Origin: Euglena gracilis
Taxonomy: Eukaryota
NCBI GenBank assembly: GCA_039621445.1
Contig: CP154954.1
Coordinates: 39,207,816-39,271,815, forward strand
Direction: 5' to 3'
DNA: 64,000 nucleotides
The notes under the pieces were generated by a model. It was given only the letters and a program-made list of their open reading frames with translations, made no database searches and was not told the DNA's origin. Positions 1,241 to 51,064 of the stretch are shown piece by piece (positions within the stretch are counted from its first letter, which is position 1; each line of letters starts with the position of its first letter). Both the position numbers and the translations under genes were made by a program.

Positions 1241-2804
1241 ACGGAGGCACCCGGCAAACCTTTCCAGGCGGTGGGTCCTCGAATAATCAGGCTTTCCCAG
1301 CGAGGGATGCCGTTGGCATGTTGAGCCCTCCCAGGGGGGTGGAAATTTGATGAGAACGGTGCCTTCCTGGCGGTGGAGAATGTGGGCCCTCTCTGAGGTC
1401 CATCAAGGCCTCCCAGGGGGGGGGGGGCAGTTCCCGATGACCAGGCTTTCCCAGCGGGGGGATCGCCTGCAAGTGGAGACTTCTCTCCCAGCACTGGGGG
1501 GGGGACGTCCAGGAAGTGTCCAGGTGAAGGTGTCGGTGCTGCGGGCCAACATCAGGTTTCTTTTTTGGTGGAGTGGGGCAGGTTTCCGGTCTCCGCCTCC
1601 CTACGGTCGGTTGAGTGTAGAAGTTTCTGGGAGAAACTTTTTGAGTAGGGGGGTGTTGGGGGGTCCGGGAAACCTGCGGGAAGAACACCCACTCCGCTGA
1701 AGGGGGGGTGAGGCTTCCCGTGGTAAGTCCACTCAGCCAGCGAACAATGTGAAGAGTGAGGATAAGGGCAGGTCCTTGGGTGCCTCCTGCCGAGGCGGAA
1801 GAAATGTGCCTCTGGGCATCCCCACGGGGGGGTGATTCAAGGTCTGTCTGAGCGCTGAAAAGGGGAGTGTGTGTGCGAGGAGTCGCTATGACCGCACATA
1901 GCCCCTGCGCCTCCCGAAAGGTGAATGACCGTTTGTTTGCAAGCTTGTGCGAGCCAGTGTGTGATCCTGTGGTTGGTTAAACTGGCCTGTGATCTGTAAT
2001 GACAGGAGAGAAATATCTTTCCACTTTGGATTATTCTTCCAGGATGAAAGTTGGGTTCTCACATACGGAATAATGGCCAGATTCATTTTCCAGAGTGTGG
2101 GACCTGGCGGACAGGGCGCAGGAAGAGAGGAGGGAATGACGCCAAAGGTAGGGAGTGCCTTGGCATAGGCTCCTATCCTAATCTGTGGTCATTCCTAATC
2201 AGTAACCTTCCAATAACCCAGCCAGCACATGCATAAGTGTGAAAAGGGCAGTGGGCAGTATTGGGAGGTGGGAATTGGTATTGCGCATATTCTCATTGAG
2301 TTGCCCGCGTTCTGCACATTTGTTTTCATGTTCCACTTTCCACAGTGGGTTTCCCAGTTTTCCAAGTTTCTCAAACATGCAAGTTGTCAAGATTCTTGGA
2401 CTATGAAACATCATTGAAAGAAGTCAAGGAATTCAATCAAAGACACTGTCAGAAGTTGAAACTGTGGTAACATTCATTGGCTGAACGGTCACTCGTGAAC
2501 CTCCAACTCCTTTGTTTTGTTGGTTGCGAAGTCAGGTTGTTTTGCCTGTTTGTTTGGGTCTTGTTTTTCCAACACAGACCTTGAAATTATCCAGAAACAG
2601 TCTGGAAATGTTTCATCCGGGAGTGTCGGGGGTGTGGGGTCGGGAAGGAATCCAGAGGGCGGGGAATTTCCTCCCCCCCCCCCTGGACATGACAATGGGG
2701 TTGGGTAGGAATCAGGGACCTGAGCCCACCCTGGTTTTGCCCAAAGGGAACCTCAAGAAGATCCTGAAGGGATTCCAGTTTGGGTTGGATCCCCTGAAAC
2801 TGAG

Positions 2805-3131
2805 GTGGGAAATAAAGATCCTACGCCGCCGGAGGTCAGTCCCGGGTTCCCCCCCGGGGGGGCGGACGCGGGGTGGGCCTCTCGCGTTAACATCCCCTGC
2901 CTATATTTCAAGCCCCGTTCCAGATTACCTGAAACGGACGACTTTGTGGTCGATAAGACAATAGACCACAAGGTCGACAGGGGTGTGCACTACTGGAAAG
3001 TTCGCTGGAAAGGGTATGGGCCAGAGGAGGACACTTGGGAGCCAGCATCCAGTTTTGTTGGATATATCCAGCAGGATTGGAAGCTGTGGAACAACCGCAA
3101 TAACATAGACATAAACATAAACACTTTCTGA
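2805..3131 (+). pseudogene. Chromodomain, probably the integrase C-terminus of a decayed chromovirus
   Basis: FVVDKTIDHKVDRGVHYWKVRWKGYGPEEDTWEP matches the chromodomain consensus; upstream sequence is degraded. Confidence 0.8.
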
Positions 3132-3278
3132 AACGATTTCGTTTTGGAGAATGTGTGTGTTTTATGTGAATGTTTCGCGTTTATACCCCCCGGGGCAAAT
3201 GCAGTCGCCGGCAGTTGGTTTTGTAGGAAATTTCCTGTTGCGTGGTCAGATTTGACTGGCCATGCGCCCTGCCCAAAC

Positions 3279-4662
3279 TTGACTGGTCAGCGGCCCCCTC
3301 CTTCCACACCCTCCCCATGGGTTTTCCTGGAATGCCCATGGACCCAACCCCAAGTGCCTTTGGCACACCCAAACTGGGTGGATGGGTTTGCCTGGCAAGG
3401 AAACCTGCCAGCCCTATTTTCCCCAGTGGGCTATAATATACTATACACCCATAAGCCAGCGCAGAATAAATGAAACCATTTTGCGCGTTTTGGGCTTTTG
3501 GGTCACCCTTTCCCCCCGCCCCTTTTGAGTGGACCCCTGTGCGACGGAAAGGGCCCCTGTGTATGCGCCAGGGTGCACCTCCAACAGTCCAGGTCTGTGT
3601 CCGAAATCCCTGTGGCCAGAATGCCTGGTCCAAAGGGAAATCGGGCATAGCCCTGGGAGGGAGATGTGTACCAGGCGTATGCTTCTGTCCCCTTCCGTTG
3701 AGGAAGTTAGGATGGAAGCAGATCCTATTAGGATCTCCTGATGGTTGCCCCTTCTCTCTCTACAGGTGGTATTCTTCTTATACCTTTTCCCTCCTTTTCC
3801 TTGGACCGGACTTGGATTTCCAGTCCGTCCTCCCCACATTGCTCCGTGCTTTGCTTCTTGGGAAGTGGGAAAAGGGTTTTCACTGTTACTCTGATTTTCA
3901 GTCCCCAAGTAGGTGCGACAAGGCGAAAGCGAAGGCTTTTGGTGAAGGGGAATTGGGAATCAGACGTACCCAGGTTTGACTTGTTAGGGGCACACTCATT
4001 CCACACCCTCCCGGGTTTTCCTGGAATGCCCATCGAACCAACCCCACGTGCCTTGGCCACACCTAACCTGGGTGGAGGGTTTGCGTGGCAAGGAAACCTG
4101 CCAGCCCCGCTTTCCCCATTGGGCTATAATATACTATACAACAATAAGCCCCAGCAAAGTAGGTGAAACCATTTTGCGCGTTTTGGGATTTAGGGTCTTC
4201 CTCCTTTCTGCCCCCTCCCTGAGTAGTCCCCTGTGCGACGGAAAGGGCCCCAGTGGATGGGCAAGGTTGCACCTCCCACAGACAAGGTCTGTGTCTGAAA
4301 TCCCTGTGGCCAGACTGCCTGGTCCAAAGGGGAAATCGGGCATAGCCCTGGGAGGGCATATGTACCAGACGTATGCTTCTGTTCACTTCCGTTGAGGAAG
4401 TTAGGATGGAAGCAGACCCTATTAGGATTTCCTAATGGGTGCCCCTTCTCTCTCCATAGGTGGTATTCTTTATTCTGTTTTGTCTTTCCTTTTCTTCGGA
4501 CCGGACTTGGATATCTACTCCGTCCTTCCTGCATTGCTCCGTGCTTTGTTCTTGGGAAGTAGGAAAAGAGTTTTCACTGTTACTCTGATTTTCAGTTTCC
4601 AAATAGGTGCGACAAGGCGAAAGCGAAGGCTTTTTGGAAACATGAATTGAAGACCAGACGTA
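3279..4662. repeat. Tandem duplication of a ~700-bp unit (mirror at ~56455-57850)
   Basis: Units start TTGACT...TTCCACACCCTCCC...GGTTTTCCTGGAATGCCCAT at 3279 and 3976; both end TAGGTGCGACAAGGCGAAAGCGAAGGCTTTT...CAGACGTA. Confidence 0.9.
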
Positions 4663-4699
4663 TACTGATTGCCCCATGTCCCACGAGAGTGCTGACACA

Positions 4700-5580
4700 A
4701 TTCTCCACTCGCTCGAAGCTTGTTCCCTTGCAGCCGCGGACCTAGTTCTCAGGGCTGGTGGCGGTACGCCAGGCAACGCAATCTCCTCCCAACTTTCAAT
4801 GACGGGCCGTTGAAGGTACAACCTGGCGCGCTCAGCGACCTTGCGGCCAACCTGTGCCCTATGGTCTTTCCCACCGCGCTTTAGTGGGCAAAGCTCTGCC
4901 GTTTGAAATGCCTAAAGATGATGCAGGGACCCCAGTCAGCACTTGCATTTAAGTTGCGGAGGAGGGTGATGTAGGTGCACGTGACTCGCACAACGGCACC
5001 ACAGGGGACGTGGACCAGCGTCGGCACGCTGTCCAGTTCAAAAAAAAGGTGACAAGGTTGCTCCGCCATGTGTGAATGCACCCGGGGGGAACCTGACCAA
5101 TCGCCGCCGAGGAGTGCCTCGGACGCCTTGTAGCCAAGGTATTCATGCACCTCCAAGCCATCACGCAGACCCTCAAAGACCTCAGTCCTATGCAAAGCGG
5201 AGTATGGGTAGCCTCACCGCAATTGGCGTGCATCAGATGACTGATGACCTCTTCCGCAAGAATGAGGATCGACGGGGCCTTTTAAAAATAGACCTAAGCA
5301 ACGCGTTCAACAGCCTCCTCCGCAGTTCCGCATTAGACAGTGTCCGTCCGAGACGTCCTGCTGCGATGTCATGGGTCGAGACTTGCTACAGCCAACATTC
5401 CCATCTATTTTGTGGCAAGAAAATGCTCACTTCGGCCAGAGTCGCCCAACACGGAGACCCGTGTGGCCCAGCTCTGTTGGCCTGGGGACTGCAAAATGTC
5501 CTGGAAGAGCTGTCTGCAAACGTCGAACGGCAGGGATGTTACTTGGATGACGGCCGTCTCCCGGGTTCGCCGCTTGTGTG
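4700..5580 (+). pseudogene. CRE/SLACS-like non-LTR retroposon reverse transcriptase, 5' part (mirror ~55530-56390, -)
   Basis: LLKIDLSNAFNSLLR...CYSQHSHLFCG...TSARVAQHGDPCGPALL...YLDDG are non-LTR RT motifs of the early-branching RLE clade. Confidence 0.85.
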
Positions 5581-8420
5581 GATGGGTCCTCGGCTCAGTG
5601 TGTTGGGACAGCCCTTGTCCAATGACACTTGGGGTGACAAACTTCTTGCCCAGGCCAACCTGTAATGTGCAATGCTGGACAGTCTCCTAATGACGAATTG
5701 GGCTTTTCCACTGGGAGTTTCTCACTGAATCACTGGAGTTTCCAAAAGTCTTTCTCACAGCAGGGGAACAAAGATTGAAGATCTTTGCCAATGCCCTTGA
5801 TCAATCAAGTCCAAGCAAACTGATACACTGTTTGCCATAGGCCAATAAAATAAAGAATTATGCAAAGAAATCCCATATTAAGATTTTGGTCTGAGAACCT
5901 TTTTTCTGGCAATGCCTAATTCAGAGATTACAGGAAATTGATCGTAAAAAGACTGTCCGCCACCCCCCCCCCCTTCATGAACAATTGCTGCGCAGTTGCC
6001 CAGGCATTCAGAGCACAGCGGACAGACGAGCCAGTTAGCCCCTCGCAGAACATGGAGAGGAGACAGAAACACGCAGAAGACGAAGACGGAGAAAACGATC
6101 AAACCGTGATATTTACTGCCGCGGAACACCACCATCACACAGCACGACATCAACGTCATTGGACAAGGGCTGTCCTAACGCACTGAGCCGAGGCCCCAAC
6201 CACACACAAACTGGTATGAGCTTTGTCCAGTTCAAACGATCCTGTTGGGCCACGAAGGGGATTGACGCTGAGATTGCGATCTGGTGGAGTGACATAACAT
6301 TGTCATTGGCGGACCAGTGAAGACAGCATGTCGTTGTCACTGAAGTGGAGATGGTGATGAGCCGTGAGGCACGTACAACAGAATCGAGCTCCGGTAGATC
6401 ACCCAGATGAGCCGTGAGGCACGTTCTGGAGAGAAAGATGGTGGTCATTTGGTGCCTTGGACAGCCCAGTTGTTGGCATTGCCATGGGTTGGGGGTTAAC
6501 CTATGAAATCCTCTGCCGTTTCGATTTGGCATTGATGTGACACTTGGGTGACAATCTTCTGGCCCAGGCCAACCTGTAATGTGCAATGCTGGACAGCATC
6601 CTATTGCTAACTTGGGCTTTTCCACTGGCAATTTTTGAGTGCCCACTCTTGGCCTGGACCCAGTGTCTCACTTTTGACTTTTCTGGCATTGAACTTTTCA
6701 AAACTTCCAGCACAGCACAAGCAAAGACAGGACTTCTTTGAGGTTCAATCAGTGACCCACGCAATCAGTGTAAGCATTTTGCTCCCTACAGAACAATTGG
6801 CATTCTTCAATGGCTTTGCAATCTTGAATTAGGAATTGCAGACTTGGCGAATCCTACACCACCTTCCTACAGAACATTCCTTGGAATGTCAGTCGGCATT
6901 CGCAGGTCAAATTTGCCAATTCGAAATTCTAACCTCGCCCTGATGTGCCCGAATTGTCACCCCCCCCCTAGGCAGTCATCCCTGGGCCCTGGGGGGGGGG
7001 GCCAACAAAAAATGTAACCTGGAGGGAATTCGGGCAATCACGAAAAGGGGAGTCTGATTTTTGTGCCCAGAAATGGGCAGCCAAAAAACGGGACTATGGG
7101 AAAAAATCTGGGCAAGGCGGAAAATCTTCAGCTCCAAATGTCTTTATCCACTGGTCAGTTACGTGCCCTGCCGTACTTCTGTGCCCATGCGGGCAAAACA
7201 GAGTACCCCCCTTCTTTGTGTCCTGACCCTTCCCCAACTGGGCAATTACATCCACCCCTTTGGTGCATCCCCTGTTAAGGGGAAATCTGGGCAAATCAAA
7301 AGGGGAAGGCCAAAAAGCAAAGTGCCCTACAGAGCAAATATCTACAAATGGTGGCTGGGCAATCACAAACCAAACCAGGAAAATGCTTACACTTGAATTG
7401 CAATGAAATCCCAGCAAACACACGAGTTTAACGCACAGGGAATGGCTTCAGCGGCTCCTCCTTCTTCCCCTTCTTACATTGTAATCTCCTGATTCATCTT
7501 TCCTTGGATGTCTCTTTTTGTTTCACCTTGTCTTCAGATTGATTGTCTTCTTCTTCAGCAGCTTGCAGAGCAAATTCCACTCTTGGAATGATTGTAATCA
7601 CCTCCACTTCAGCCGCCTGAACACCAACATGTACAGATGAGATTGCCATGGCAGGGCTCTTCTGCTGCTGCAGAACTTCCAAAGCCCTGAAAACATACTC
7701 CTGCGACACAGGATGTACATGGTGATCAGCTTCACCTTCAGCCATAGTTCCTGGACAGCAGTGGACCCCAATCCGTAAACATCTGCAGCTGCTGGATTGC
7801 ATCTTCTGTACCCATTCTGTCATGGATGTGGTCCATCTTCCCAGTCCATGCTGCAGCATCTTCCTGGAAACTTCCTCAATGACATCTGGGCTGACCAAGC
7901 CCGGGAGCTGACTGATTGTACAGGGTATACACTGATTGTTCGAGTGCCCACTCTTGGCCTGGACCCAGTGTCTCACTTTTGACTTTTCTGGCATTGAACT
8001 TTTCAAAACTTCCAGCACAGCACAAGCAAAGACAGGACTTCTTTGAGGTTCAATCAGTGACCCACGCAATCAGTGTAAGCATTTTGCTCCCTACAAAACA
8101 ATTGGCATTTTTCAATGGCGTTGCAATCTTGAATTACGAATTGCAGACTTTGCGAATCATACAAATTTCCCACTGCATCACTGGTGTTTCCAAAATCTTT
8201 CGCACAGCAGGGGAAGAAATCCTGAAGACCTTTGCCAATGCCCTTGATCAAGTCCAAGCAAACTGATACACTATTTGCTAGAGGCTGCCAATGAAATACA
8301 GAATTATACACAGAATTCCCAGATTAAGATTTTGGTCTGAACCCTTTTTTCCGGCATTGCATAATTCAGAGATTCCAGGAGATTGATTGTGAAAAGGCTG
8401 TCCGCCACACACGCGATGCA
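5580..8420. mobile_element. Unidentified mosaic insertion nested in the CRE-like RT, with internal duplications
   Basis: Interrupts RT between YLDDG and GLAVNLAKC; 6637-6855 repeats 7942-8160, 5723-5965 repeats 8171-8410, 5626-5715 repeats 6540-6630. Confidence 0.6.
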
Positions 8421-9830
8421 GCTCCTCACGGCCCTTTCCACACCGTCCATGAAGCGGGAAAAAGCGGATTGGCGGTGAACCTTGCTAAGTGCAATCTGTT
8501 GGGCCCTGCCTTCACCTCAAATTGTGGAAGTACCTCGCAGACAGAAAACTTCGCCAAGTACCCATCGTGCCGCTTCTCAAGGATTCTGGCCTCAAAGTTC
8601 TCGGGATCCCACTCTGGCTTCCGGAAGGCGATACATTTGCCCGGCAGATTTGGAGTAAACGTGTGAACAGTGTTATGGAGGCATGCCAATCTCTTTCCAA
8701 GCTACCACAGGCGCATCTTCAATTCACTATTCTCCGATATTGCCTCACCTCTAGAAAAGTAAACGACCTTCTGCGAGCAGCCACAAACACCCAGGGTCCC
8801 CTGGAGTGTGCAGCATTCAGCACAATCCTACGGAACTGCTTTTGAAGGACTGCTTGGTGTCCCGTGCACACCACAACAACGGGAGCAAATCTGCCTACCA
8901 ATTCGCTTGGGAGGCCTTGCCCTTTCATACACCAGCCCCATCCGCTTGAATGTTCGAATTGCTGGCTGAATTGCTGACATCGTTGACTACTTTCGCCGCG
9001 GGCCAAAGACATTGGGAATACCATCAGCTTTCCCCCGTGCTCCTGCAGACACCCTGGATTGTTTGCGAGCCGCTTTCACCATCCTCGGAACCACACTACC
9101 CCTTCCACAATGGCTGGGGGACTTGTCTCTTATCCAAAAAACTTAGAGCCCCCACACCTCAGAAACCGGTCAACTTTCCACTGCGCGGCAAGCGTAGCTA
9201 ACCCAAGAATTACCTGCACAGGATCAAATTCGGTTTGCAAGCAAATGCCAGCCCCACATAATGGCGTGGGTTGCAGCAACACAAAGCACCGCCAAACGCA
9301 CGCTCTTGCCTTCTGTGGAACTCGGCCGTCTCCTTCAGTGGAACATTGGCATATGCAGTTGAGCGACGTTGCTTCACCAAAGGCTTGCACTGCCCAAAAT
9401 GCTAGGGGATTGTGAATGTCACGGGTCATCACCTTTTGTGCTGCAAATTCAACAAAAAAACGAGCAACGGGCGGATGACAACATTCGCCCCGGCGATCTG
9501 TTTTTTCCGCGATTGGACAGTGCCTATCGACCCCCCCCCCGTTGTTCTAGCAGGGCTCTGAGGAGGGTGGACATCAGTGTGCGGCCTTCCTGGACTAGTC
9601 ACCTGAAGCAGTCAATCAAGAAGGCATTGAGGCGCCGCCCCCACCTTGCACAGGCAGCATCATATTTCCGGTGTTTTTCGGCGTCTTGCCTCTCCGGCCA
9701 GGCTTACAGCTAGGTGGTTCGTCCAAGAGGTGGCAACAACGCTAAACAGAAGCAGAGGCTGGCAAGGCCTCTCTCTGACACTAGCCAAAGATACATAAAA
9801 ACAACTTGTGTGTTGCTTTTACACTGAAGA
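8420..9830 (+). pseudogene. CRE/SLACS-like retroposon, 3' part: RT thumb and restriction-like endonuclease (mirror ~51240-52640, -)
   Basis: GLAVNLAKC, GLKVLGIPL, FTILRYCL..KVNDLLR, WEQICLPIRLGGL, NIRPGDLFFPRLD; many frameshifts. Confidence 0.8.
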
Positions 9831-10000
9831 ATCCACAAGTGCCGACACCTTTTTCACAGGCTCTCGCTCTCCCTACTCAAGCTAAATGGACACCCCACTC
9901 CAAACTCTGCAAACAACGGCAAGCACGCCGCAACGGCGGGCAACAAACCTGAAACCTCAGCGCCAACACCGTTGTCCCAACAGAATACAATCCAATACAA

Positions 10001-10232
10001 GTTTTCTGGGTGTCTCTTTGGGGTAACTTTTTCTTCCTTTTCCCTCTTATCCTTGATATTTGAATGCAATGAACTTGCCAGATTGGTATGGATGAAGTGT
10101 TCAGGCTTGGAACCACCTGCAAAGGAGGCAGTCCCATTTATAATTGAAATTAGGATCTTCCGCAAAGCAGAAGATCCCGCGCTTGGTCTTTTTGGCCCCG
10201 CCTGGCGCCACCCCCTGGGGCCGCCGCCAACA
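10001..10232 (-). repeat. 3' LTR of mini element (232 bp)
   Basis: Preceded on the minus strand by the polypurine tract GGGAGGGAAG (10233-10242) and followed by the TSD copy TTGTA. Confidence 0.85.
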
Positions 10233-11319
10233 CTTCCCTCCCGGACCGCTTGCGTACCGCCTCCGCCAATACGAGGCGGCCCCAGGGAAGTGTTCGGGCC
10301 CCTTGGCCCCCGAAGCCTTCCGCTTCGGGGGGGGGGGACTCGGCCCTCGGCCCGTGTGGGCCCGAGGCCTTGGGTTTTTGGGCCCCGAGGTCTTCGACCT
10401 CGGGAAGGGGGGGTGTGGGGGGGGCTCGGCCCCCGTGGGCCCGAGGCCTTGGGTTTTTGGGCCCCGAGGTCTTCGACCTTGGGGGGGGGGGGGTTGTGGT
10501 GGGTGGTGTGGGGGGGTGGTGGCTTGGCGGTGTTTTTTTGGGAAGTAACATAGGGCGAATTCTGAGTCTGGGGTTAAGATCGTGGTCCAGGGTCCGCACA
10601 TCCAACAATGTCCAGGTAGCGAATGATGAATGGGGGGGGCAGGTAACATTGGAAGTTCACACCGCCACTCCCGAATCAAGATCCCAGGGCCACAATTCCA
10701 TCATCCAGGAGGGGGCAGGTAACATGATGTTCACACTGCCACACACACACACCTGTTATTCATCCAAATCTGCCTCCAAACCGCATCGAATCGAAGACAT
10801 GGGGCAGTCAACGCAAAGTCCACACCACCTCACTTTGTTATCCATTCTGCAGATTTGATCCAATTCCACTGAATTGAAAATGCGGGGCAAGCAACCCTCA
10901 GGTCCACACCGCCACACTTCAACAAACCCAACGACTCATCTTCGGCGACGGGCAGCCAAATCGCCCTGAGCACCTCCCCCCAGGGGTGACGGGCCGTCGG
11001 TCCGCCCAGAGCATCCGACGACAATCGACCTCCAACACCTGGATTTTTCAGACATTCTTTCTGTGCTGACGCAGGCCATTTCGTGCACCATTGAAAGATA
11101 TGCTAAATCCTTCAATTTCTGATCGGGGATCTTGGACACTGGCTTCACAGAGGAGGGGGATCAGACTGGGAGGGGAGGGCAGGCAACACTCGGTCCACAC
11201 CGCCTCATTCCCACGTCTCCGCGAACCACTGGTACCGCTGTCGACGGTATCTCCTCTTGCAGGCCTCGGAGAGTCCACCTTCATCTTCGCTTCTCCTGCG
11301 GGCTCGGGACGTTGCTGCT

Positions 11320-11781
11320 TCATCTGCTTGCTGGGGGCATGTCCTTCAGGGTCTCCTCCTGGAATCTTCGGTATCGGACCAAACGCGCCCGGACTGGCCA
11401 ACGCAATGGCCCAGTCGGCTGCATCTGGCCCGCTTGCTGGTCCCAGATCTCGAAGAACCGGGTTCCTTCCTCGAAGATGAAGAACTTCACTGTCATCTTC
11501 TGCAGCACTGGCCACCATGTAGTCGTACGCCACTCCGGTGCAATCAGCACCATCTCCTGCACTTGGTCCGCGATGATCTTGAGGATGACTTGGTTCATCA
11601 ATGTCCATGGGGGATTGGCCCAGATCCTTTCCCATGTCCATGTCTTCGCAAATGCATTGTCCTCCTTCGTCCAGAATTTCTGCAATCTTGCATTTTCCCA
11701 TGATGCAAATGCTTCCTGCACACCTTCTCGCTGAATGTGGAACTTGTCCAGGATCAGGTCGACGAATGCCCAGCGAAAGGC
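11320..11781 (-). pseudogene. N6-adenine DNA methyltransferase (Dam-like) domain; an in-frame TAA at 11782-11784 separates it from an acidic upstream ORF
   Basis: EAFASWENARLQKFW..DNAFAKTWTWERIWANPPW...MVLIAPEWRTTTWWP: motif IV NPPW plus the xxFAS..N and PxW motifs of DIRS/phage Dam-like MTases. Confidence 0.85.
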
Positions 11782-12220
11782 TTACTCCTCCGAGATGTAC
11801 TGCCTCTTGATCCTTTTGCCTCCTCCTCTTGGTCTTGGCTGGGTCTCTGGCTCGTCTACCTCGTAGTTCTCCTCATCTGCAGCTGGCCTTGATGGCGATC
11901 CTTCTTCTTCAGATCTGGTCTCCATCACCACATTCCTCCTCCTGAATGGCTGCAATGGTTCTTCCGGTTCTTCAGCTGCATCTGCATATCTTGGAGCTAG
12001 ACTGCTGAATTCTTCTTCTTCTTCTTCTTCGCCATTCCACACTGTCAATGCAGATCTCCAGTCTTCTTCGGGTAATCGGACACTCCATTTGCTCCAGCTC
12101 CAATCTGTCACTTGCTGCACTTTCTGAGATTCTTCTTCCGGCCTCCAACTGACATTCATCCCTCTGGCCTTGGAATTTTGGTAATCTGATCCTTGCATTC
12201 TGGCAAGTCTGATCACTTCG

Positions 12221-12452
12221 GTTTTCTGGGTGTCTCTTTGGGGTAACTTTTTCTGCCTTTTCCCTCTTATCCTTGATATTTGAATGCAATGAACTTGCCA
12301 GATTGGTATGGGTGAAGTGTTCAGGCCTGGAACCACCTGCAAAGGAGGCAGTCCCATATATAATTGAAATTAGGATCTTCCGCAAAGCAGAAGATCCCGC
12401 GCTTGGTCTTTTTGGCCCCGCCTGGCGGTACCCCCTGGAGCCGCCGCCAACA
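12221..12452 (-). repeat. 5' LTR of mini element (232 bp)
   Basis: Near-identical to 10001-10232; minus strand reads TGTTGGCGGCGG...CCCAGAAAAC. Confidence 0.85.
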
Positions 12453-12644
12453 TACAACCAAGCCAAGAGCTCTCTGCGCCACACAAACTCCCCTCCCACA
12501 CACCACATATCAGACACAAACAAGCCGCGCCAGGCAAACACCCAACACACACACAGTCACTATTTAAACCCCCCCAAATAACATACCCCCCCCCGCTGTT
12601 TTATTTTGGCCCCGAACTGGAGTAATGGCACGAACCCGGGACCC

Positions 12645-12932
12645 CTTAACCCCCCCTACCCCCTAACCCCCCCTAACCCCCCCTACCCCCTAACCCCCCC
12701 CTAACCCCCCCCTAACCCCCCCTAACCCCCCCTAACCCCCTAACCACCCCCCCCCCCCCCCTACCCCAACCGAACCCCCCCCTAACCCCCCCTAGCCCCC
12801 CCCCCCTAACCCCCCCTAACCCCCCCTACCCCCTAACCCCCCCTACCCCCTAACCCCCCCAAACCCCCCCTAACCCCCCCTAACCCCCCCTAACCCCCCC
12901 CTAACCCCCCCTAACCCCCCCCTACCCCCCTA
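12645..12932. repeat. Degenerate telomere-like (CnTAA) array
   Basis: Repeated C-runs of variable length separated by TAA/TA. Confidence 0.9.
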
Positions 12933-12958
12933 ACGCCCCACCGCAAACGAGTTTTTTT

Positions 12959-13337
12959 GAGGAAAGAGCGGATGGTAGGAAACTGTCCGGCACGGCGGGG
13001 GGGGGCTCCGCCCCCCCCCCCGAACCCCCCCCAGAACCAAAATAACACCACAATCCCAAGTTTGAAAAATTTTTGAGGAAAGAGCGGGTCGTATGCAACT
13101 GTCCGGCACGGCGGGGGGGGGCTCCGCCCCCCCCCGAACCCCCCCCCAGAACCAAAATACACAATCCCAAGTTTGAAAATTCTTTTTGAGGGAAAGAGCG
13201 GGTCGTATGCAACTGTCCGGCACGGCGGGGGGGGGCTCCGCCCCCCCCCGAACCCCCCCCCCAGAACCAAAATAACACAATCCCAAAGTTTGAAAATTTT
13301 TTTTGAGGGAAAGAGCGGGTCGTATGCAACTGTCCGG
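12959..13337. repeat. ~115-bp tandem repeat, 3 full copies and 1 partial
   Basis: GAGG(G)AAAGAGCGG...AACTGTCCGG recurs at ~12959, 13075, 13188, 13306. Confidence 0.9.
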
Positions 13338-13390
13338 GGGTCGGTTTGACATTCTCCGCCCCCCACAACCCCACCAGAATCAAAACAGCT

Positions 13391-13680
13391 CCTAAGCCCC
13401 CCGCCCCCCCTAACCCCCCCCTAACCCCCCCTAACCCCCCCTACCCCCCTAACCACCCCCCTACCCCCCCCTACCCCCCCCTACCCCCCCCCCCCCCCCT
13501 ACCCCCCCCTAACCCCCCTCCCCCCTCACCACCCCCCCTAACCCCCCCTAACCCCCCCTAACCCCCCCTAGCCCCCCCCTAACCCCCCTAACCCCCCCTA
13601 CCCCCTTACCATCCCCCCCTAACCCCCCCTAACCCCCCCACCCCCCCTAACCCCCCCTAACCCCCCCTAACCCCCCCTAG
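13391..13680. repeat. Second degenerate telomere-like (CnTAA) array
   Basis: Repeated CCCCCCCTAA variants, same orientation as the first array. Confidence 0.9.
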
Positions 13681-14074
13681 CCATTCCCCACTTCGTGCCA
13701 TATGTGCCGAACTGGGGCACCAGGGGGGGATGTGCAATTTGGGTGCGTGTGTTATTTTTACATGGAAAACCAACGGAAAACAGGGGGGGTGTTATTTGGG
13801 GTGGGGTTTTTTGGGGGTTGTTATTTGGGGGGTTTTATACTGAAGATGAGCCTCGCTCATTTTCACTAACCTCTCACCCAGACACCGAAAACCCCCTCTG
13901 TAAACACTTCAGTATCGTATCGCTCTTAAAACCTTATATTCACAGAGACCACAGGCGACCTGTGGCCGCACAAGGATTGATGAGGAGTTTCTCCTTGTGG
14001 CAAGGGCCAAACCACACGTTTCCCTGGGCACAGGGCACGGTCAAGAAGAAGTCCAAAAAAACCAGAAGTCCAAA

Positions 14075-14640
14075 AAATGAGACACGGACAACCTCTCATG
14101 CCCGGCTGTCAACTTCGACAGTTTGTTGTAAAATATTTCACCCACCATGGACTCCTCCAAACAATCTCACTATTTTATGAAAAAGATGCTGCAATGAGGG
14201 AGGAAAGCTCGCCCGATGGTCCACGTCCCGGGGACGTTCTTGTCATGAGGTACGACACGGATGGACCAGCGGCGATCGATGTCACCATCCGACACCCCTA
14301 GGCACCATCTCCGACGCGCCCTGGCACGGATGAGACCTGAAAGTGGCACAAGGCTCAAGAGGAGGATAAGGTGAGGAAGTATGGCGAGTGGTGCCAGCGG
14401 AGAGGCTGGACATTAATCCCCTTCGTAGTGGACTGCTATTGAGAGATGGGGGATGCCGCACTCACAATCGTTACCAATTCTGTTCACCTCCTTGCCGGCC
14501 AGGCGACGCATGGGAGAGAAGGGGAGTTGAGGGCAATTGCTGGCAAGCACTCAGTAAGGTAATGTCCAGAGAGTTGGCGGGGCAACTGGTTTTGGGGGCA
14601 GTGCGTGAGGACTCGGCCGATGGGGGCGTTGCCGAAGCTC
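14075..14640 (+). pseudogene. CRE-like restriction-like endonuclease (RLE) fragment (mirror ~47560-48120, -)
   Basis: RPGDVLVMRYDTDGPAAIDVTIRHP ... EEDKVRKYGEWCQRRGWTLIPFVVDCY matches RLE PD-(D/E)xK and KxxKY motifs. Confidence 0.8.
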
Positions 14641-15479
14641 GTCGACCGTACACATAAAAAGAACAGCACGCCCAGCCTCTAAAGCCCAGATATTTCTCAA
14701 AGCTGTGTATGCAAAGTTTTTCCAGGTGCCCATAGGGCCTGTCAGTACAACAAACTGAGGTGCGCTGGTGGAAACAACTGCTGCCTAAAGTGGACTTCGA
14801 CTCACGACTACGGCAGAGGACCTCTACAGCAGCCAAAGCAAGCAAGACTCTACACCCGTCACGCTACCAAATTAGCACGATGGAGCCGCAACGACACCCC
14901 GAGGAGCCGCAAGGCAGGAAAGACAACAAGCTGACCTGCGGCACCTTACCATTCCCCCCATAAACCTGCCGAGATGCCGCCCACCCGCCACTGGAAACCG
15001 GGATCACCGGCCCACCGGTCATCAACACCCAGACCGTAAACGGCACTGACACCCGCAACCTCCCAATTGCCTGCCCAACCACTCTTACTCACGTTGCCGA
15101 AGAACTCCGGAAGCTGAGCAACAACGGCCTCGCCTCGGGCTGTTACTATTGTATAAGCTCGCCCTATTACCTTCCGTCCCTTCACAAGCGAGCATAGAAT
15201 GTTGCCTCTGTATATAGCCTTACTGCTCCAAGCTCCTCAAATCCAGTAGGCTGTTCCACCGGTCGGTGGACTCGGTTCGCCCAACCACCGTTCGGAAGGT
15301 TGTACAGCTCCCTATGCCTTGGGCCTGCCCGCTGCCGTGGACATCCTTTCCAAGTGCGCTAACGATTGTTTGCGACACCCCTCAATGAACTTGGCCAGAT
15401 TGCCCCACTGCCGCAATGGGCCAATGACAAAAACTTGATCTTCAGGCACAGTCTCCACACAATACATAACGTTGGTGGA

Positions 15480-15790
15480 ATCAGCAGAGCATGCTTTCCC
15501 GCCAGAAAACACTTTCTGACGCATTAAATGGACCTGAAGCTATACGCTTTGCAAGCCAATGCCAACCACGTGCCGTGGCGTGGGCCGCTTTGACACCATC
15601 TCAAGGACTGCGCACCCTTTTACCCACAGCTGAATTCCGCTGCACACTTCGTTGGTCCCTCACATGAATGGAATGGAATGACCCTCACACCAATGGAATC
15701 CTATCCCAAACTCTGTCCCAAATGCTTTGCATCATCAGTTTTTCTCGGACACCACCTCGTTTGCTGCAAATCAAACTTCATTACCACAGG
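15480..15790 (+). pseudogene. CRE-like post-RT/zinc-finger fragment (mirror ~46430-46710, -)
   Basis: AWAALTPS..LPTAEFRCTLRWSL..CPKC...GHHLVCCK, a CCHC finger typical of RLE retroposons. Confidence 0.7.
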
Positions 15791-17167
15791 CAAGCTTCAC
15801 AGCCTGTAAAGAAAACGACCTGAATTACCGTTTACTGCCTGGGTACATTTGTGCGGGATAACCTTCTTTGCTTCTCGGCTTGTTCGAGGTCCATGGGGAT
15901 TCCCTGCCACCGCACAGGATCGATTACCCTGTCCAGTTGAGTCTCAACTCCCCGCGTGGCCTTTGTTATAAATTGTTTCATCTCCTGTTACTTGAAAAGA
16001 TCTTTTCCTTTCTCGGGGTTAGTGTGGGGTGGGCCCTTGGGGGGTCTCTGGCCACAGAACGGGTATAAAAAGCAGGCAGGTCTTGCTAAAAGCAGCGAAA
16101 GGCCTTCAAATTGCGGGTCGTGGTCAGACATTGACGCAAGGGAACAAGCGCTTCTTAGGCACACCAGCAGCAACAATTCCTGCTTCAGAATTCACTTCAG
16201 ACCACAAGACCTGTACCTGAACAGAAAATTAACTTAGAATTCAAATGAATCTTGACAAACTTGAATTGACTTGAAACTGGAACCAGATTTGCCGTTGCAA
16301 ATGTATAATCAGATTGAGGAAGGACAGAATAGTGACCGCGCCTTGTAGAAGTCAGTGTGGCCAGCCTTGTGTAAAATGTGGTCCGAGGTTAAAATTCCGT
16401 CAGGAAGGGATTATCCTTATTGTTTCGTCATTGAAACTGCAGGTCCCTGGTTAGTCCAAGTTCTCTGTTTAATTCTGGGGCGCCTCGGTTAGCTTTTAAG
16501 GGTGGCGCCTGAGGTTAGCCAACTTGCCAGGACACTCAGCACTCCTGACCCGCACTCCCCTTCCCAAGGAGTTGTTTACAACTCTTCTCGACTCACTTAG
16601 GAAGGGATGCGGAGTGCGTTTGTTAAAAGGGGGCTGGACCGCTCATGTGCTGGTCACAGGCCGGTCCACCGTCTTCCCTGCTCGAAGGGGGGGGTCTGGC
16701 CTGGTTGCTTTTTCTTTTTTTTAAGGGGCTGTCCCCCCCAGGTCCCTTGTCGAGTGGGGGAGGGGGCAGGCGCAAGGCGCCCATCACAGACCCCGCCGTT
16801 TTTGCAAAGGGGTAGCACCCGTTTGGGGGGTTCCGCCTGCACCTGCCAAGCGGTCAGCCACCGGCCAGGTGCGAATTCTTACAAAAATCAAGCGAAGGCT
16901 GAGTCAGGGTCTTCCGGTTAAAATCAGGCTGTGGCAGGGTGTGAGTCAGGGGTGCTTAGTGCCCAAAACAACACAACCTAACACTACCCAACCTGATGAC
17001 TCCGCAGTTAGGATTATGAAAATTATATTAGGAAATACAAATACGCTGACTCCATCTGTCCCTGCACAGGGCTCTGTCTCTGTTTTTGTCTGTTTTAAGT
17101 TCAAGAACTGAATTATCTTGGTGGCATCAGTTATCATTCTTACCCTGGACATTACGTACCTTGGTCT

Positions 17168-20100
17168 GTGGATTCATTTGTACTTCATTTGTGGCTTTGC
17201 TTGCTGGATTGCTTGTGTATTTTTTTATCAAAGGAAAGGTGTGAGCCAACCAACCCACCTGTTTTCACCCAAAAAAACCCACCCAAAACAAGAAAAATGC
17301 AATTTCTGAAACAATCCGCAACGGGAATTGAAAAAACCCTGACCGGGGTTAAAGATCCTACGCAACGGGGTGCCGGCCCCGAGGGACTGGAAACTCAAGG
17401 GCGGGTACCACGAATACAACATGGTAGCAGAGGTAGGTTGCCCATTTGTGATTCCCCTCCAACATGCGGCTACGAACAAGAAACTGAAAAACGACAAGAA
17501 AGTGAAGAGAATGACGCTGACATGCCAGCTGCCGAAACCGCCATCGCTAGGGTGGTGGAGCCGGCGGATGGCTGTCCAGCTCTGAACCAAACACTGGATG
17601 TGCCAGCTGCCTTAACCGCCATCGCCAGTGTGGTGGAGCAGGCAGATGGTTTCCCAGCCCTGAACCAAACACTGGAAACGCCAGCTGCCTTAACCGCCAT
17701 CGCTAGGGTGGTGGAGCCGGCAGATGGCGTTGCCGCCATATACCAGTCACTGGACAGCAACAGGTGGACTGAAACTGAACAAAACGGCACAGACATTACA
17801 GTGCCGCAGGCATGCAATGACAGCCCACGTGTCGTTGCCATGGTGCACATGGACCAGAACGACACTGAAAAGACCGGTCCATCACCAGACTACACTGAAC
17901 TGGACGAAAACAACGAACCGTACTTTGACAAACAGGTGTTTGCACCACAAAACTGGCTCCAACTGCCAGAACATGACGCTCAGAACAACCAAAGCTGGCA
18001 AACCGCAACAGCACAGCAACCAGGAACCCAGAGTTTTGCTCTGGTGGCGGTGCGACAGAGACCGGAACAACCTGACCGCCTCCAGGGTGAAATTGAAACT
18101 TCGTACCAGGAACCATCGTACAGCTCGTACGAGATTCCGAAGCTGGAACCACAGAACCAGGACACTGACTGGGACTGGTGGTCGAACTTTGCTTACGAAA
18201 CTAGACAGCTGACCCAGGAATTTCAACAGTTCAGACACAAAACTGAACAGACGAACCAGCAAACGGCAGAAACACTGCAGCAGCTACAGCAAAAAACGAC
18301 GGAATGGGTCAGCGAACTGCACGCAACAGTCAACAGACAGGCTGAAGCACTCCTGACAGAAATCAAAGGCAGACACGAAGAACTGACAACAGTCCTCGCA
18401 ACAACGCAAGCGAACATGGAACTGGTGACAGTGAACCAGAACAAACTGTACCAGGAACATTTCAACGGAATGTCACAGCAGATCGCGGAAATCAGGGAAA
18501 TGTCTGGCTCAACGGGCGAAAAACTCAGGGAATTTCACAGTTTTCTGCAGATGGCTGGTGGAAATGCACAGAACCAGGGTGAACATCTGGTTGGTTTACT
18601 GCACCGACAGCGAGAAAACGAAAAAACAACTGCAGAACTGCAACAGAGAACGGCTGTGGCAGAAGAACGGGTTGCAGGAATCACAGGCGGCGTCCAAGCG
18701 GTGAACAGCAAAGTGGACGAAACTGTGGCAACAGTTTTCAGAAAGGTTGAAAAACTCAGAGGCGAAATCAGCAGTGTGGTGGAAAGAATTCAGAAGGACA
18801 TGGGCAGTGAAATCGGAAATCTAGCAGGACGGGTTCAGCAGCAGGAAACAAAAAAACAACAACCATTCAAAACTGTGATTACCTGCACAAAAAAATGGTC
18901 GAACTGCAGAAAATACCAGATCAGCAACAGCAGATTACACAGCTAAACGAGGAAATCGGCAGACTGAAACGACAGGTGGAAAACCTGACCTCCAACGAAG
19001 AAAAACACAAGCAACGCACTGAACGACTGAACCTGGAGGTCGGCAGCCTGGGTCACAAGGTGGACGAAACAGTCCAAACGACTCAAAAACTGCTGGGTGA
19101 ACTGCAGAAAGGTGCCATTAAGACGGGAACACATGCCACACCGGAACAAGCTAAATGGATGAAAATGACATCTGCCACTAGCTCAATGACACCCAGGGTC
19201 GGTCAAATGGAAGCAAAACTGGCTGGTCTGACAACAAAACGGCAGAACGGGAAACACATGACAACAGCATTTACATGCTCTGACCACGGAACTGCAAACA
19301 CAGCAGAAACGGTGGACAGAACAGTTGGTGACCCTGGACAGAAAACACAGCACAGTGACAAAAACGACTGAGAACCTGACCGGAAAACTGGAAAGGGAAA
19401 ACACCCAGCAAATCACAAACCCCAGCCCTAGCCTGGCTAAAATACCCAAACGTCTTGAAAATTTAAGCATTTCTTCTCGCCCAGCCTGCACAGGGGCCTT
19501 CTGGCCGGAGACAGGGGCCGGCCCCCTGGCCAGTGGGCCTCCCGCGAGGTCCCAGGCTGGACAGCCAGGGGCAGCCACGACAGCCCAACGAACGGAACAG
19601 CCCACCCAGGGGACAGACAGGGCCTCGGGCCAACGGGGATCAGGGACCGCACAACCCCAGAACCTGCCCCCAGCCCCGAGGGGCCAGCCCATAGGGCAAC
19701 CTGGGACGGGGACCCCAGAACCCCACACCTGGTTGACGGGGATGGGGACCCCACAACCCCTGGCCCAGCCACCGCCAGCCCTGAGGGGCCAGCCCGCAGG
19801 AAGCCAAAGGACGGGGACCCAGAACCCCAGGCCTGTCAAACGGGGGAGGGGACCCCACAACCCCTCACAGGTACGTTCAGCCAGAGCAGCCAGCACTGGG
19901 GGGCTGAAACACCACACCCAAAAATGGAAGGAGTAGCTGCAACACTGGGGACCGTTAACTCGGCTTCCCTGGTGGGGCAGCTCATCCAGCAAGAAATAAA
20001 GACTGCCTTGACACCTTTAATTGCCCAACTGACTCGACAAACGGAACAACGACCGACTGCAGTGCCGACCAGCCCAGCACTTCCGACGAACCCGACAAGC

Positions 20101-21743: not shown

Positions 21744-21977
21744 AGGGGCTGCGGCCTGAGGGTAGGGGACGAGAGTGGCGACTCTCTGCAGACACAACCG
21801 AAACAACTAGACAAAACAAGGGAACCAGGTCCAGAGCCGCAGCGGTCATACACACTGGTTAAGGGAGGTAAGAAAAAACCTCAAAAGAAAAACATCCTGA
21901 CAAAAAAACGACTCCACAGCCCAGAACCGAAAAGGGAACAGGTCAGCTGCAGGTTCGGCAGAGCGGCTTCACGGTGG

Positions 21978-22390
21978 GTGTCTGAAAACTACCACGTGAA
22001 GGAAGATAAAATGACGGAAATTCTCTCACACTTCGGGGTCCAGCCCCTGCTGGATGCCATAGAAAAGAAAAAAAACAAAAGATTCTCGCAATGGTGGCAT
22101 CGGGCAGCCCTGAGGGCACAGACGCATTTGAAAAAGACTGGCACGGAAAACTGCTGTGAATGAACTCCCCATTCAGCAAAACTTCACAGGTGGTGAGAAA
22201 AATTCAAACAGACGAGGCCCATGCACTCCTCATGGTACCCAGATGGGTTCACAGAAAATGGTACGGAGAAATCAAAAAACTGGCAGTGATGTCAATGTTC
22301 ATTTCAGCGAAAACAAAACTGTTCGAACAGGGTGACAAGAAAAGCAGGGAAACACCGTGGCCCGTGGAAGTGTTTTTGGTATACGGACAC
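21978..22390 (+). pseudogene. Dam-like N6-adenine MTase domain of family A (left copy, disrupted)
   Basis: ENYHVK..ILSHFGVQPLLDA..DAFEKDWHGKLL*MNSPF..ALLMVPRW..KWY..TKLFE..PWPV; motif IV appears as NSPF. Confidence 0.8.
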
Positions 22391-22624
22391 AAAACACGGT
22401 GCAAGTACCTACCAGGTTTCCACAAACATTTCACCCCCCTACACCCGACATCCAAGGTGAGGTTCGGCACAGCCCACGAGTACCCGCCAGTGGAGGACGA
22501 GGTGGAGGGTGGTGAACAAAAAACCGGTTTGGGAACTGAAAAACCACATAAATACATCAGAAAAGTGCAGGAGGCAGCCACAGCGACACCATAACAGGCC
22601 ACAGCAGAAAAACTGAAACCGAAA

Positions 22625-23190: not shown

Positions 23191-23415
23191 TGATTCAGGA
23201 CCTGGCGGGGTTCCACGAACGGCTACGGCAAACCAGCCAAGCCCAGGCCGCGCAGCAACCACCGCTGCAGCGGCCCAGCCCTGCCCAGACTGCACGACAA
23301 AACATGCTCTCACAGCCCAGACCAGAACCCAACAGGTCAACAGCCAAACCCAGATTCAACTGACAAAACAGAACCAGACCAAAACATTCGGCTTCCAAAA
23401 CGACTGTGTGAACCG

Positions 23416-48631: not shown

Positions 48632-51064
48632 TTTTGGCGGCGGATCCAGGGGGTGGCGCCAGGCGGGGCCAAAAAGACCAAGCACGGGATCTTCTGCTTT
48701 GCGGAAGATCTTAATTTCAATTAAATATGGGACTGCCTCCTTTGCAGGTGGTTCCAGGCCTGAACACTTCACCCATACCAATCTGGCAAGTTCATTGCAT
48801 TCAAATATCAAGGATAAGAGGCAAAAGGAAGAAAACGTTACCCCAAAGAGACACCCAGAAAACTGAAGTGATCAGGCTTGCCAGAATGCAACGATCAGAT
48901 TACCAAAATTCCAAGGCAAGAGGGATGAATGTCAGTTGGAGGCCCGAAGAAGAATCTCAGAAAGTGCAGGAAGTGACAGATTGGAGCTGGAGCAAATGGA
49001 GTGTCCGATTACACGAAGAAGACTGGAGATCTGCATTGACAGTGTGGAATGGCGAAGAAGAAGAAGAAGAATTCAGCAGTCCAGCTCCAAGATATGCAGA
49101 TGCAGCAGAAGAAGCGGAAGAACCATTGCAGCCATTCAGGAGGAAGAATGTGGTGATGGAGACCAGATCTGGAGAAGAAGGATCGGCGTCAAGGCCAGCT
49201 GCAGATGAGGAGAACTACGAGGTAGATGAGCCAGAGACCCAGCCAAGACCAAGAGGAGGAGGCAAAAGGATCAAGAGGCAGTACATCTCGGAGGAGTAAG
49301 CCTTTCGCTGGGAATTCGTCGACCTGATCCTGGACAAGTTCCACATTCAGCGAGAAGGTGTGCAGGAAGCATTTGCATCACGGGAAAATGCAAGATTGCA
49401 GAAATTCTGGACGAAGGAGGACAATGCATTTGCGAAGACATGGACATGGGAAAGGATCTGGGCCAATCCCCCATGGACATTGATGAACCAAGTCATCCTC
49501 AAGATCATCGCGGACCAAGTGCAGGAGATGGTGCTGATTGCACCGGAGTGGCGTACGACTACATGGTGGCCAGTGCTGCAGAAGATGACAGTGAAGTTCA
49601 TCATCTTCGAGGAAGGAATCCGGTTCTTCGAGATCTGGGACCAGCAAGCGGGCCAGATGCAGCCGACTGGGCCATTGCGTTGGCCAGTCCGGGCGTGTTT
49701 GGTCCGATACCGAAGATTCCAGGAGGAGACCCTGAAGGACATGCCCCCAGCAAGCAGATGAAGGAGCAACGTCCCGAGCCCGCAGGAGAAACGAAGATGA
49801 AGGTGGACTCTCCGAGGCCCGCAGGAGGAGATACCGTCGGCAGCGGTGCCAGTGGTTCGCGGAGACGTGGGAATGAGGCGGTGTGGACCGAGTGTTGCCT
49901 GCCCTCCCCTCCCAGTCTGATCCCCCTCCTCTGTGAAGCCAGTGTCCAAGATCCCCGATCAGAAATTGAAGGATTCAGAATGTCTTTCAATGGTGCACGA
50001 AATGGCCTGCGTCAGCACAGAAAGAATGTCTGAAAATTCCAGGTGTTGGAGGTCGATTGTCGTCGGATGCTCTGGGCGGACCCACGGCCCGTCACCCCTG
50101 GGGGGCGGTTGCTCAGGGCGGTTTGGCTGCCCGTCGCCGAAGATGAGTCGTTGGGTTGGTTGGAGTGTGGCGGTGTGGATTTGAGGGTTGCCTGCCCCCC
50201 ATTTTCAATTCAGTGGAATTGGATCAAATATGCAGAATGGATGACAAGTGAGGTGGTGTGGACTTTGCGTTGACTGCCCCATGTCTTCGATTCGATGCGG
50301 TTTGGAGGCAGATTTGGATGAATAACAGGTGTGTGTGTGGCAGTGTGAACATCATGTTACCTGCCCCCTCCTGGATGATGGAATTGTGGCCCTGGGATCT
50401 TGATTCGGGAGTGGCGGTGTGAACTTCCAATGTTACCTGCCCCCCCATTCATCATTCGCTACCTGGACATTGTTGGATGTGCGGACCCTGGACCACGAGC
50501 TTACCCCCAGACTCAGTATTCGCTCTATGTTACTTCCCAAAAAAAACACCGCCAAGCCACCACCCCCCCACACCACCCACCACAACCACCCCCCAAGGTC
50601 GAAGACCTCGGGGCCCAAAAACCCAAGGCCTCGGGCCCACGGGGGCCGAGCTCCCCCCACACCCCCCCCCCCCCGAGGCGAAGACCTCGGGGCCCAAAAA
50701 ACCCAAGGCCTCGGGTCCACATGGGCCGAGGCCCCCCCCGAAGCGGAAGGCTTCGGGGGCCAAGGGGCCCGAACACTTCCCTGGGGCCGCCTCGTATTGG
50801 CGGAGGCGGTACGCAAGCGGTCCGGGAGGGAAGTGTTGGGGGCGGCCCCAGGGGGTGGCGCCAGGCGGGGCCAAAAAGACTTAGCGCGGCATCTTCTGCT
50901 TTGCGAAGATCCTAATTTCAATTAAAAATGGGACTGCCTCCTTTGCAGGTGGTTCCAAGCCTGAACACTTCATCCATACCAATCTGGCAAGTTCATTGCA
51001 TTCAAATATCAAGGATAAGAGGGAAGAGGAAGAAAAAGTTACCCCAAAGAGACACCCAGAAAAC
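48632..51064 (+). mobile_element. Mirror copy of the mini LTR element; Dam-like domain at 49300-49761
   Basis: PPT GGGAGGGAAG 50824-50833, TG at 50834, LTR end 51064 followed by TTGTA; WANPPW retained; first bases of the 5' LTR and TSD are mutated. Confidence 0.82.

Follow-up and report, generated by a model that had tools for sequence, protein, structure and literature searches.

A 64,000-nucleotide stretch of the Euglena gracilis genome (GenBank assembly GCA_039621445.1, contig CP154954.1, positions 39,207,816 to 39,271,815 of the forward strand), hereafter the window, contains a retrotransposon-like insertion of 2,452 bp that is bounded by long terminal repeats (LTRs) and has a Dam-type adenine-N6 methyltransferase, coded on the minus strand, as its only recognisable gene. 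This mini element is probably a decayed member of a lineage of non-autonomous LTR retrotransposons whose single gene is a free-standing Dam. LTR elements of E. gracilis that combine Dam and a C5-DNA methyltransferase (C5-DNMT) with reverse transcriptase (RT) and a chromodomain have been named EpiLTRs in a 2026 preprint, which, in its accessible part, also reports Dam-carrying LTR elements in several eukaryotes (bioRxiv 10.64898/2026.05.21.726589). The mini element looks like a stripped-down relative of these methyltransferase-carrying Euglena retrotransposons, and what it adds to that account is a Dam-carrying LTR element reduced to its LTRs and Dam.

The LTRs are direct repeats of 232 nt each, 97% identical with 7 differences, which enclose about 2 kb. 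In coding orientation (minus strand) the 3' LTR lies at 10001..10232, from TGTTGG at 10232 to a GAAAAC end at 10001, and the 5' LTR at 12221..12452, where a TATA-like run, ATTATATATGGG, occupies LTR positions ~89-100. The target site duplication (TSD) reads TACAA on the plus strand, with its left copy at 9996..10000 and its right copy at 12453..12457. A polypurine tract (PPT), GGGAGGGAAG (10233..10242, minus strand, given as the reverse complement of the plus-strand letters), abuts the TGTTGG start of the 3' LTR, and its position agrees with the orientation of the open reading frame (ORF), both being on the minus strand. The PPT/LTR junction recurs as its reverse complement within 10228-10292, about 50 nt before the PPT in element sense; AACACTTCCC pairs here with GGGAAGTGTT, and the PPT region could fold as a hairpin. 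Between the 5' LTR and the ATG there is a leader of 22 nt (12199..12220, minus strand), in which no canonical tRNA primer-binding site (PBS) is visible because it contains no TGG. On the coding strand all four LTR copies in the window begin with TG and end with AC. An earlier, sequence-only reading of the window had described the two repeats, the perfect duplication, the TG start and the adjacent PPT, as well as the AC end and the lack of a clear PBS, and all of these were confirmed.

Logan contigs of three public DNA runs (X1, X5 and X18) were placed on positions 9300-12600 of the window. One X1 contig (depth 293.9, with 40 nt on its shorter side) passes from position 10000 to 12475 and has TACAA only once; the 20 letters between these positions are a diverged version of 12458-12474. 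This empty paralogous site, with its diverged right flank, shows that the insertion is real and that it duplicated 5 bp of the target; the mini element is an LTR-bounded insertion of the integrase type. The sequence-only reading had drawn the same distinction from DIRS elements on the basis of the duplication, and had made its account depend on an empty site with a single TACAA; in agreement with it, no tyrosine recombinase was detected among the 111 window ORFs scanned. The flanking repeat is present in high copy, with bins 9411-9743 reaching 22,850-63,742 in summed X1 depth, and the element therefore landed inside another repeat.

The second copy that the same reading had noted is present at 48634..51064 on the plus strand, 96.2% identical over its full length, with the same TAA and frameshift (see below) and with one copy of the TSD decayed. 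It is not a second insertion. An inverted duplication of ~24.5 kb at 95-96% identity fills most of the window (3197-27772 versus 34576-57937, with a 6.8 kb spacer at 27773-34575), in which 3197-12620 pairs with 57937-48467 at 95.4% and 13725-27772 with 48468-34576 at 95.7-96.4%. Since the two copies share flanks as parts of its arms, they represent a single insertion event. Three differences between the 5' and 3' LTRs are common to both arms, which places the insertion before the duplication, and the TAA and frameshift, likewise common to both, indicate that decay of the ORF also preceded it.

The coding content of the mini element was assessed by a Pfam scan of the 30 six-frame ORFs of at least 40 aa inside 10233-12220. 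The Dam family (PF05869) was the sole match above the Pfam cut-off (E 2.3e-10, 40.8 bits versus a cut-off of 28.1), with the other listed matches, KASH (0.018) and Ornatin (0.085), falling under it. None of the 30 ORFs matched a gag, RT, RNase H or integrase family, so the element can only be non-autonomous. The Dam-type domain spans 153 codons (11323..11781, minus strand) and includes an NPPW motif, of which the N and the second P are invariant in 14 alignment rows. An acidic N-terminal region of the same ORF, predicted to be disordered (11785..12198, minus strand, with the ATG at 12198-12196), lies upstream in frame with the Dam ORF (11781-11323), a single TAA standing between them. The sequence-only reading had reported the absence of gag, RT and integrase motifs, the Dam-like domain with NPPW, and the upstream acidic frame with its TAA in both arms, in accordance with these results.

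Comparison with relatives and public contigs shows that the window ORF is broken twice, by the TAA at a conserved Tyr codon and by a frameshift near 11325. The TAA (11782..11784, minus strand) is a nonsense mutation: its column holds Tyr in all 10 outside relatives that cover it, within an SEEYAV[RK] motif, and the Dam of family B in the window (see below) has EDY, the Tyr that had been read there earlier. The suggestion that other copies would carry a Tyr codon at this place was borne out as well, for a T to G change at 11782, which turns TAA into TAC, accounts for most or all of the depth (X1, 10090 of 10406.6; X5, 173.7 of 187.1; X18, 20.1 of 20.1). As to the second lesion, the nearest library protein, P0001 (JGI, 170 aa), which is 93-94% identical to the mini element's Dam, aligns to 11721-11326, after which its residues 132-170 align in another frame to 11324-11208 at 89.7%; this alignment across two frames places a frameshift near 11325 in the window copy. 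The remnant of a conserved basic C-terminal tail thus lies out of frame at 11205..11324 (minus strand), with its stop codon at 11207-11205, and an intact gene would span 12198-11205, or ~330 codons. One X1 contig lacks 4 nt at 11326/11328 (135.2 of 302.4 in depth). With TAC dominant at 11782 and contigs free of the 4 extra nt, the family in the public DNA runs is mostly intact at both lesions. The RNA run X21, of which about 5 in 100 was read, gave 2 matching reads, both on a G-rich repeat, and is uninformative on expression.

Structure prediction with AlphaFold2 (77 aligned sequences) gave a predicted local distance difference test (pLDDT) score of 95-98 over residues ~140-290 and below 55 for residues 1-110, the latter being acidic and, on this prediction, disordered. 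The structured part is predicted to adopt a class I (Rossmann) S-adenosylmethionine-dependent methyltransferase fold, with adenine-N6 enzymes as the best matches: CAPAM at Z 9.5 (128 residues aligned, root mean square deviation 2.9 Å), then DIMT1, KsgA and Erm at Z 8-9, T4 Dam at Z 7.8 and EcoDam at Z 7.4. Z values of 7-8 are common, and such values show the fold only.

Relatives of this protein are numerous and mostly small among the best matches. An all-length HMMER search of 1.84 billion representatives returned 1077 matches at E<=1e-3, 84 at <=1e-10 and 4 at <=1e-30. The 12 best (E<=3e-20) are 132-280 aa long, and proteins above 500 aa begin at rank 50 (E 1.4e-12) and make up 16 of the best 150 of the 1077 matches; metagenome proteins can be truncated by contig ends, so that short lengths are not proof of small proteins. 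Word-index protein searches gave 1 match among 3 candidates and 2 among 821 candidates. The small metagenome Dam proteins P0003-P0013 (37-49% identical, 165-280 aa) resemble the mini element's Dam in their acidic N-terminal motif, SEEYAV domain start, NPP[FWY] motif and basic patch. Six of them (P0003-P0007 and P0009) run from the initial Met to the C-terminal end, and the basic tail is present in five of these six, the exception being P0007. An acidic EEYxEVED-like motif occurs in 6 relatives, comparable to DEENYEVDEPE in the window ORF. As this start-to-stop layout is kept at 37-49% identity, the free-standing Dam gene appears to be an old unit and not an accidental polyprotein leftover. Within the window, the mini element's Dam is 34.7% identical to the Dam of family B and 26.6% identical to that of family A. 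A protein-alignment scan of JGI metagenome contigs found 13 loci of at most 31% identity over the domain, with one 29-residue segment at 45%; these are distant relatives, the contig of P0001 is not among them, and a self-repeat check of the 13 revealed no mini element. Two of the Dam matches (L001 and L002) stand on one metagenome contig, and a 2130-bp perfect direct repeat (1-2130 and 10222-12351, ~10.2 kb apart) is present at L001, where the Dam relatives are 30% identical.

Between the ORF and the PPT there is an untranslated region (UTR) of about 1 kb that is rich in hairpins, some with TTCG-type loops, and in which no coding remnant was found when six-frame ORFs of at least 40 aa were compared with Pfam. 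At 10638..11207 (minus strand), about five copies of a ~30-nt hairpin-like motif occur, reading GGCAGGTAACA...CACACYGCC on the plus strand; its 4 exact matches in the window (0.00 expected) all fall in the two copies of the mini element. G+C-rich, hairpin-forming tandem repeats of ~79 bp lie at 10303..10500 (minus strand). Public contigs differ in the number of copies and in the sequence of the unit, and several of them join 10298-10335 to 10417-10420 with differing inserted letters. Rfam gave nothing at gathering score in the window and chance-level matches only in the element. ARAGORN, run over the window, gave a single, doubtful 88-nt 'tRNA-Glu' (10357-10444) within the hairpin repeats, without Rfam support.

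The contigs of the three runs also bear on whether the mini element belongs to a family. The bin over the right LTR/flank junction (12408-12518) served as yardstick, with summed depths of 1277 in X1, 5.1 in X5 and 63 in X18. Two bins over one LTR segment reach 13859, 54.5 and 558, respectively, a ratio of 9-11 to the yardstick, where about 2 would be expected from an element with two LTRs; the LTR segment is thus ~5-fold over-represented in all three runs. The Dam ORF reaches 25-200 times the junction bin, as does part of its 3' region, and segment 10299-10631 stands at ~2-3 times (2927-3467 versus 1277 in X1). The hairpin repeats specific to this lineage occur in X1 in at least 5 variants. 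The excess of LTR depth and these variants together argue, indirectly, that more LTRs and 3' regions of the lineage exist than this locus supplies, and the depth of the Dam ORF indicates that the ORF belongs to a much larger family.

Candidate helpers for such an element are found within the window (G+C ~52%). Each arm of the duplication contains a large Ty3/gypsy chromovirus of EpiLTR-like type (~17100-27700 on the plus strand and ~35400-45200 on the minus strand), here called family A, in which Dam and C5-DNMT precede an RT, an RNase H, an integrase zinc domain and a chromodomain. No LTRs of this chromovirus were found between 13700-19000 and 26500-34600, and none in the window. A third element, family B, extends over 58434-64000 with a DNMT followed by a Dam. 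Immediately ahead of its DNMT and Dam ORFs (62598-63999) it has a 1387-aa open frame (58434-62594, plus strand) for which Pfam gave no match at E<=0.01. The region around the ATG of this frame resembles the leader and ATG of the mini element, in that 1 of 300 shuffles reached the score, the regions having been picked post hoc.

A second small LTR element of ~1.53 kb lies at 6636-8163. Its ~223-bp LTRs are 97% identical and have TG...CA termini, its TSD is AATTT, and its minus strand has a PPT-like AGGAAGGTGG. Pfam recognises no ORF in it, and its insertion interrupts another repeat (5718-5963 / 8164-8408). With its canonical termini and TSD, this element indicates that mini LTR elements transpose in the E. 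gracilis genome. Two further ORFs on the plus strand look like remnants of other retroelements: a chromodomain ORF at 2724-3128 (E 2e-9), which ends 68 nt before the left arm, and a weak RT fragment at 4985-5662 (E 6e-6) inside the arm. The outer right boundary of the duplication (57937/57938) coincides with the start of the TGTCGG... element that runs to the end of the window. A 1.1-kb block at 12621-13724 is present in the left arm only and consists of about four 116-bp tandem repeats between C-rich telomere-like arrays, which are CCCTAA variants with long C runs.

Taken together, the mini element would have been a small LTR retrotransposon made up of a 5' LTR, a 22-nt leader, one ORF, a hairpin-rich UTR of ~1 kb, a PPT and a 3' LTR. 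Its intact ORF of ~330 codons would have coded for an acidic disordered N-terminus, a PF05869 Dam domain and a basic tail. RT and integrase may have been supplied in trans by an autonomous Ty3/gypsy-type element, for example one like the Dam and DNMT chromoviruses of the window, and a DDE-type integrase would have inserted the element into another repeat, duplicating 5 bp, before the ~24.5-kb inverted duplication copied the whole neighbourhood. The Dam protein may mark the DNA of the element or its replication intermediate with N6-methyladenine (6mA), as the accessible part of the 2026 preprint proposes for Dam in LTR elements (bioRxiv 10.64898/2026.05.21.726589).

A number of observations weigh against the assignment of the mini element to a mobile, non-autonomous lineage. 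The window holds only one independent insertion and, beyond the duplicated copy, no element with the same LTR. A 25-nt block that is invariant in the four LTR copies had no match in JGI metagenome contigs, GTDB genome contigs and IMG/VR contigs yielded no relative and no LTR-sharing element, and a second insertion site was not recovered from any of these three collections. Family B was considered as an LTR partner, as its putative 5' end (TGTCGG at 57938) looked similar by eye, and was rejected: the LTR aligns with it at a score of 28 against a shuffle mean of 28.2, which 261 of 500 shuffles reach (36 of 500 when only the first 70 nt are used). The autonomous partner sharing the LTR, for which the sequence-only reading had called, was accordingly missing from the window and from the three collections. 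Its proposal of an element that is mobilised in trans and spreads a methyltransferase keeps its footing in the LTR-bounded insertion with a 5-bp TSD and in a Dam-type enzyme as the only recognisable ORF; it loses ground with the single independent insertion, the doubly broken ORF and the missing partner. In addition, the ORF stands at 25-200 times the junction depth versus ~10 times for the LTR, so that the ORF relatives would for the most part be bounded by other LTRs or form part of a larger element. These summed contig depths are not copy numbers, and the runs behind them may mix several organisms. Further segmental copies of the same insertion could also account for the extra LTR and hairpin variants. 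The LTR ends in AC instead of the canonical CA and no tRNA-type PBS is recognisable next to the 5' LTR, two features for which membership of such a lineage does not account. An enzymatic role is weakened by the lack of a 6mA gain when eukaryotic Dam proteins were placed in dam-deficient E. coli, as given in the accessible part of the preprint (bioRxiv 10.64898/2026.05.21.726589).

Some of these points would be accommodated by a one-off deletion, in which the insertion was originally a full-length LTR element, with gag-pol behind its Dam ORF, that lost pol only afterwards; no family of mini elements would then exist. Such an origin would account for the single insertion in the window, for the lack of a second site in every collection searched and for the much lower depth of the LTR than of the ORF in each of the three DNA runs, and the rare segment 10299-10631 could mark a lineage-specific deletion scar. 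It is nonetheless unlikely, since the ORF starts 22 nt past the LTR and has its own stop, a layout kept in free-standing relatives of 37-49% identity, since the 1-kb 3' region holds no coding remnant, and since the ~5-fold LTR excess in three runs and the at least 5 further hairpin-repeat variants in X1 point to more copies than one. The depth difference has also been weighed as a sign of a chimera, in which an element of the Ty3/gypsy type would have taken up, between its LTRs, a free-standing Dam module from an unrelated element, either DIRS-like or otherwise high in copy number. With the ORF at 25-200 times and the LTR at ~10 times the junction depth, the module would lie mostly outside this LTR, and the mini element's Dam is closer to the free-standing small Dams (37-49%) than to the Dams of the window chromoviruses (35% and 27%). 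A chimera would represent an intermediate in the DIRS-to-LTR transfers that the 2026 preprint, in its accessible part, derives from mixed DIRS/LTR Dam clades and describes as 'ongoing domain transfer' in E. gracilis, the LTR-borne Dam being held there to be DIRS-derived (bioRxiv 10.64898/2026.05.21.726589). Faster divergence of the LTR alone could, however, produce the same depth difference, neither a tyrosine recombinase nor DIRS-type repeats were found anywhere in the window, and a captured module is a rather improbable source.

A tyrosine-recombinase element of the DIRS/PAT type, or a fragment of one, with the 232-bp repeats as split direct repeats and TACAA as a fortuitous match, would fit the non-canonical LTR terminus and the missing PBS. 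It would also fit the history given in the accessible part of the preprint, according to which Dam-like domains in eukaryotic retroelements were known before 2026 from DIRS elements only (bioRxiv 10.64898/2026.05.21.726589). This is highly improbable for the mini element, whose 5-bp duplication is backed by the empty paralogous site and whose PPT abuts an LTR that starts with TG; the window has no recombinase ORF, and the repeats around the element are plain direct repeats, with neither inverted terminal repeats nor an A...B-A-B arrangement.

With regard to priming, self-priming of the Tf1 type was considered, as LTR positions 150-159 form a perfect 10-nt complement to nt 12-21 past the LTR; it was ruled out as placed, because the complement begins 12 nt past the LTR end and those 12 nt are absent from the 3' LTR. 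The outermost 17 nt of the LTRs (10003-10019 and 12223-12239 on the plus strand, and their right-arm equivalents) match the core of the euglenid spliced leader with 2 mismatches (letters from PMC3621762). The match is antisense to the Dam ORF, starts at the third base of each repeat on the plus strand and so ends 2 nt from the LTR terminus. Six matches at 2 independent loci were found versus 0.01 expected from shuffles, a comparison that local A/T strand bias probably flatters. On a bold reading of this match, a spliced-leader-derived RNA, instead of a tRNA, could prime reverse transcription and be copied into the LTR end, and such priming, if true, would explain both the missing PBS and the AC terminus.

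Adenine-methyltransferase-carrying LTR retrotransposons were described only in 2026, and nearly half of eukaryotic Dam genes were left as 'orphans': in the accessible part of the preprint, 46.1% of the proteins are 'orphan DAM-only' without transposable element (TE) features and are read as degenerate remnants (bioRxiv 10.64898/2026.05.21.726589). The present locus shows in concrete terms how one such orphan is built, namely as a small Dam gene between LTRs, with a TSD, an empty site and no replication genes. The term 'non-autonomous' does not occur in that part of the preprint, and the literature searched holds no description of a Dam-only LTR element, with the reservation that the supplementary lists of Dam-TE families of the preprint, which fall outside this scope, may include one. 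If the lineage is multi-copy, keeping the methyltransferase would pay even after an element has lost all else; Dam would then appear to serve the element itself, and the lineage would provide a minimal system for testing the function of retroelement Dam. A bolder and doubtful extension is that Dam-only mini LTR elements are amplifying 'epigenetic hitch-hikers', which have shed their replication genes, borrow RT and integrase from chromoviruses and keep Dam under selection for 6mA-marking of their own cDNA or chromatin. Were this the case, many of the eukaryotic 'orphan DAM-only' genes would be cargo of minimal LTR elements and not debris.

Among known systems, DIRS1-type elements with a methyltransferase domain carry the same Dam family as the mini element. 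Integration of DIRS elements relies on a tyrosine recombinase and is not known to leave target duplications, whereas the mini element lacks a recombinase and has a 5-bp duplication backed by an empty site. The terminal-repeat retrotransposons in miniature (TRIMs) and large retrotransposon derivatives (LARDs) share with it short LTRs, a TSD, a PPT, the lack of gag-pol and a presumed mobilisation in trans. Their internal regions are not known to be coding, and the element at 6636-8163 looks like a plain example of this kind. In contrast, the mini element encodes a conserved enzyme, has no recognised PBS and ends in AC. The likeness to EpiLTRs and other Dam-carrying LTR elements, as far as the accessible part of the preprint describes them (bioRxiv 10.64898/2026.05.21.726589), consists of a PF05869-type Dam with an NPP motif inside an LTR-bounded retroelement, and chromoviruses of the EpiLTR type lie in the same window. 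The combination of Dam with RT, DNMT and a chromodomain in one element, by which EpiLTRs are defined there, is present in the large chromoviruses and not in the mini element, which lacks RT, integrase, gag and chromodomain and in which Dam, instead of being part of a polyprotein, is a free-standing ORF of ~330 codons.

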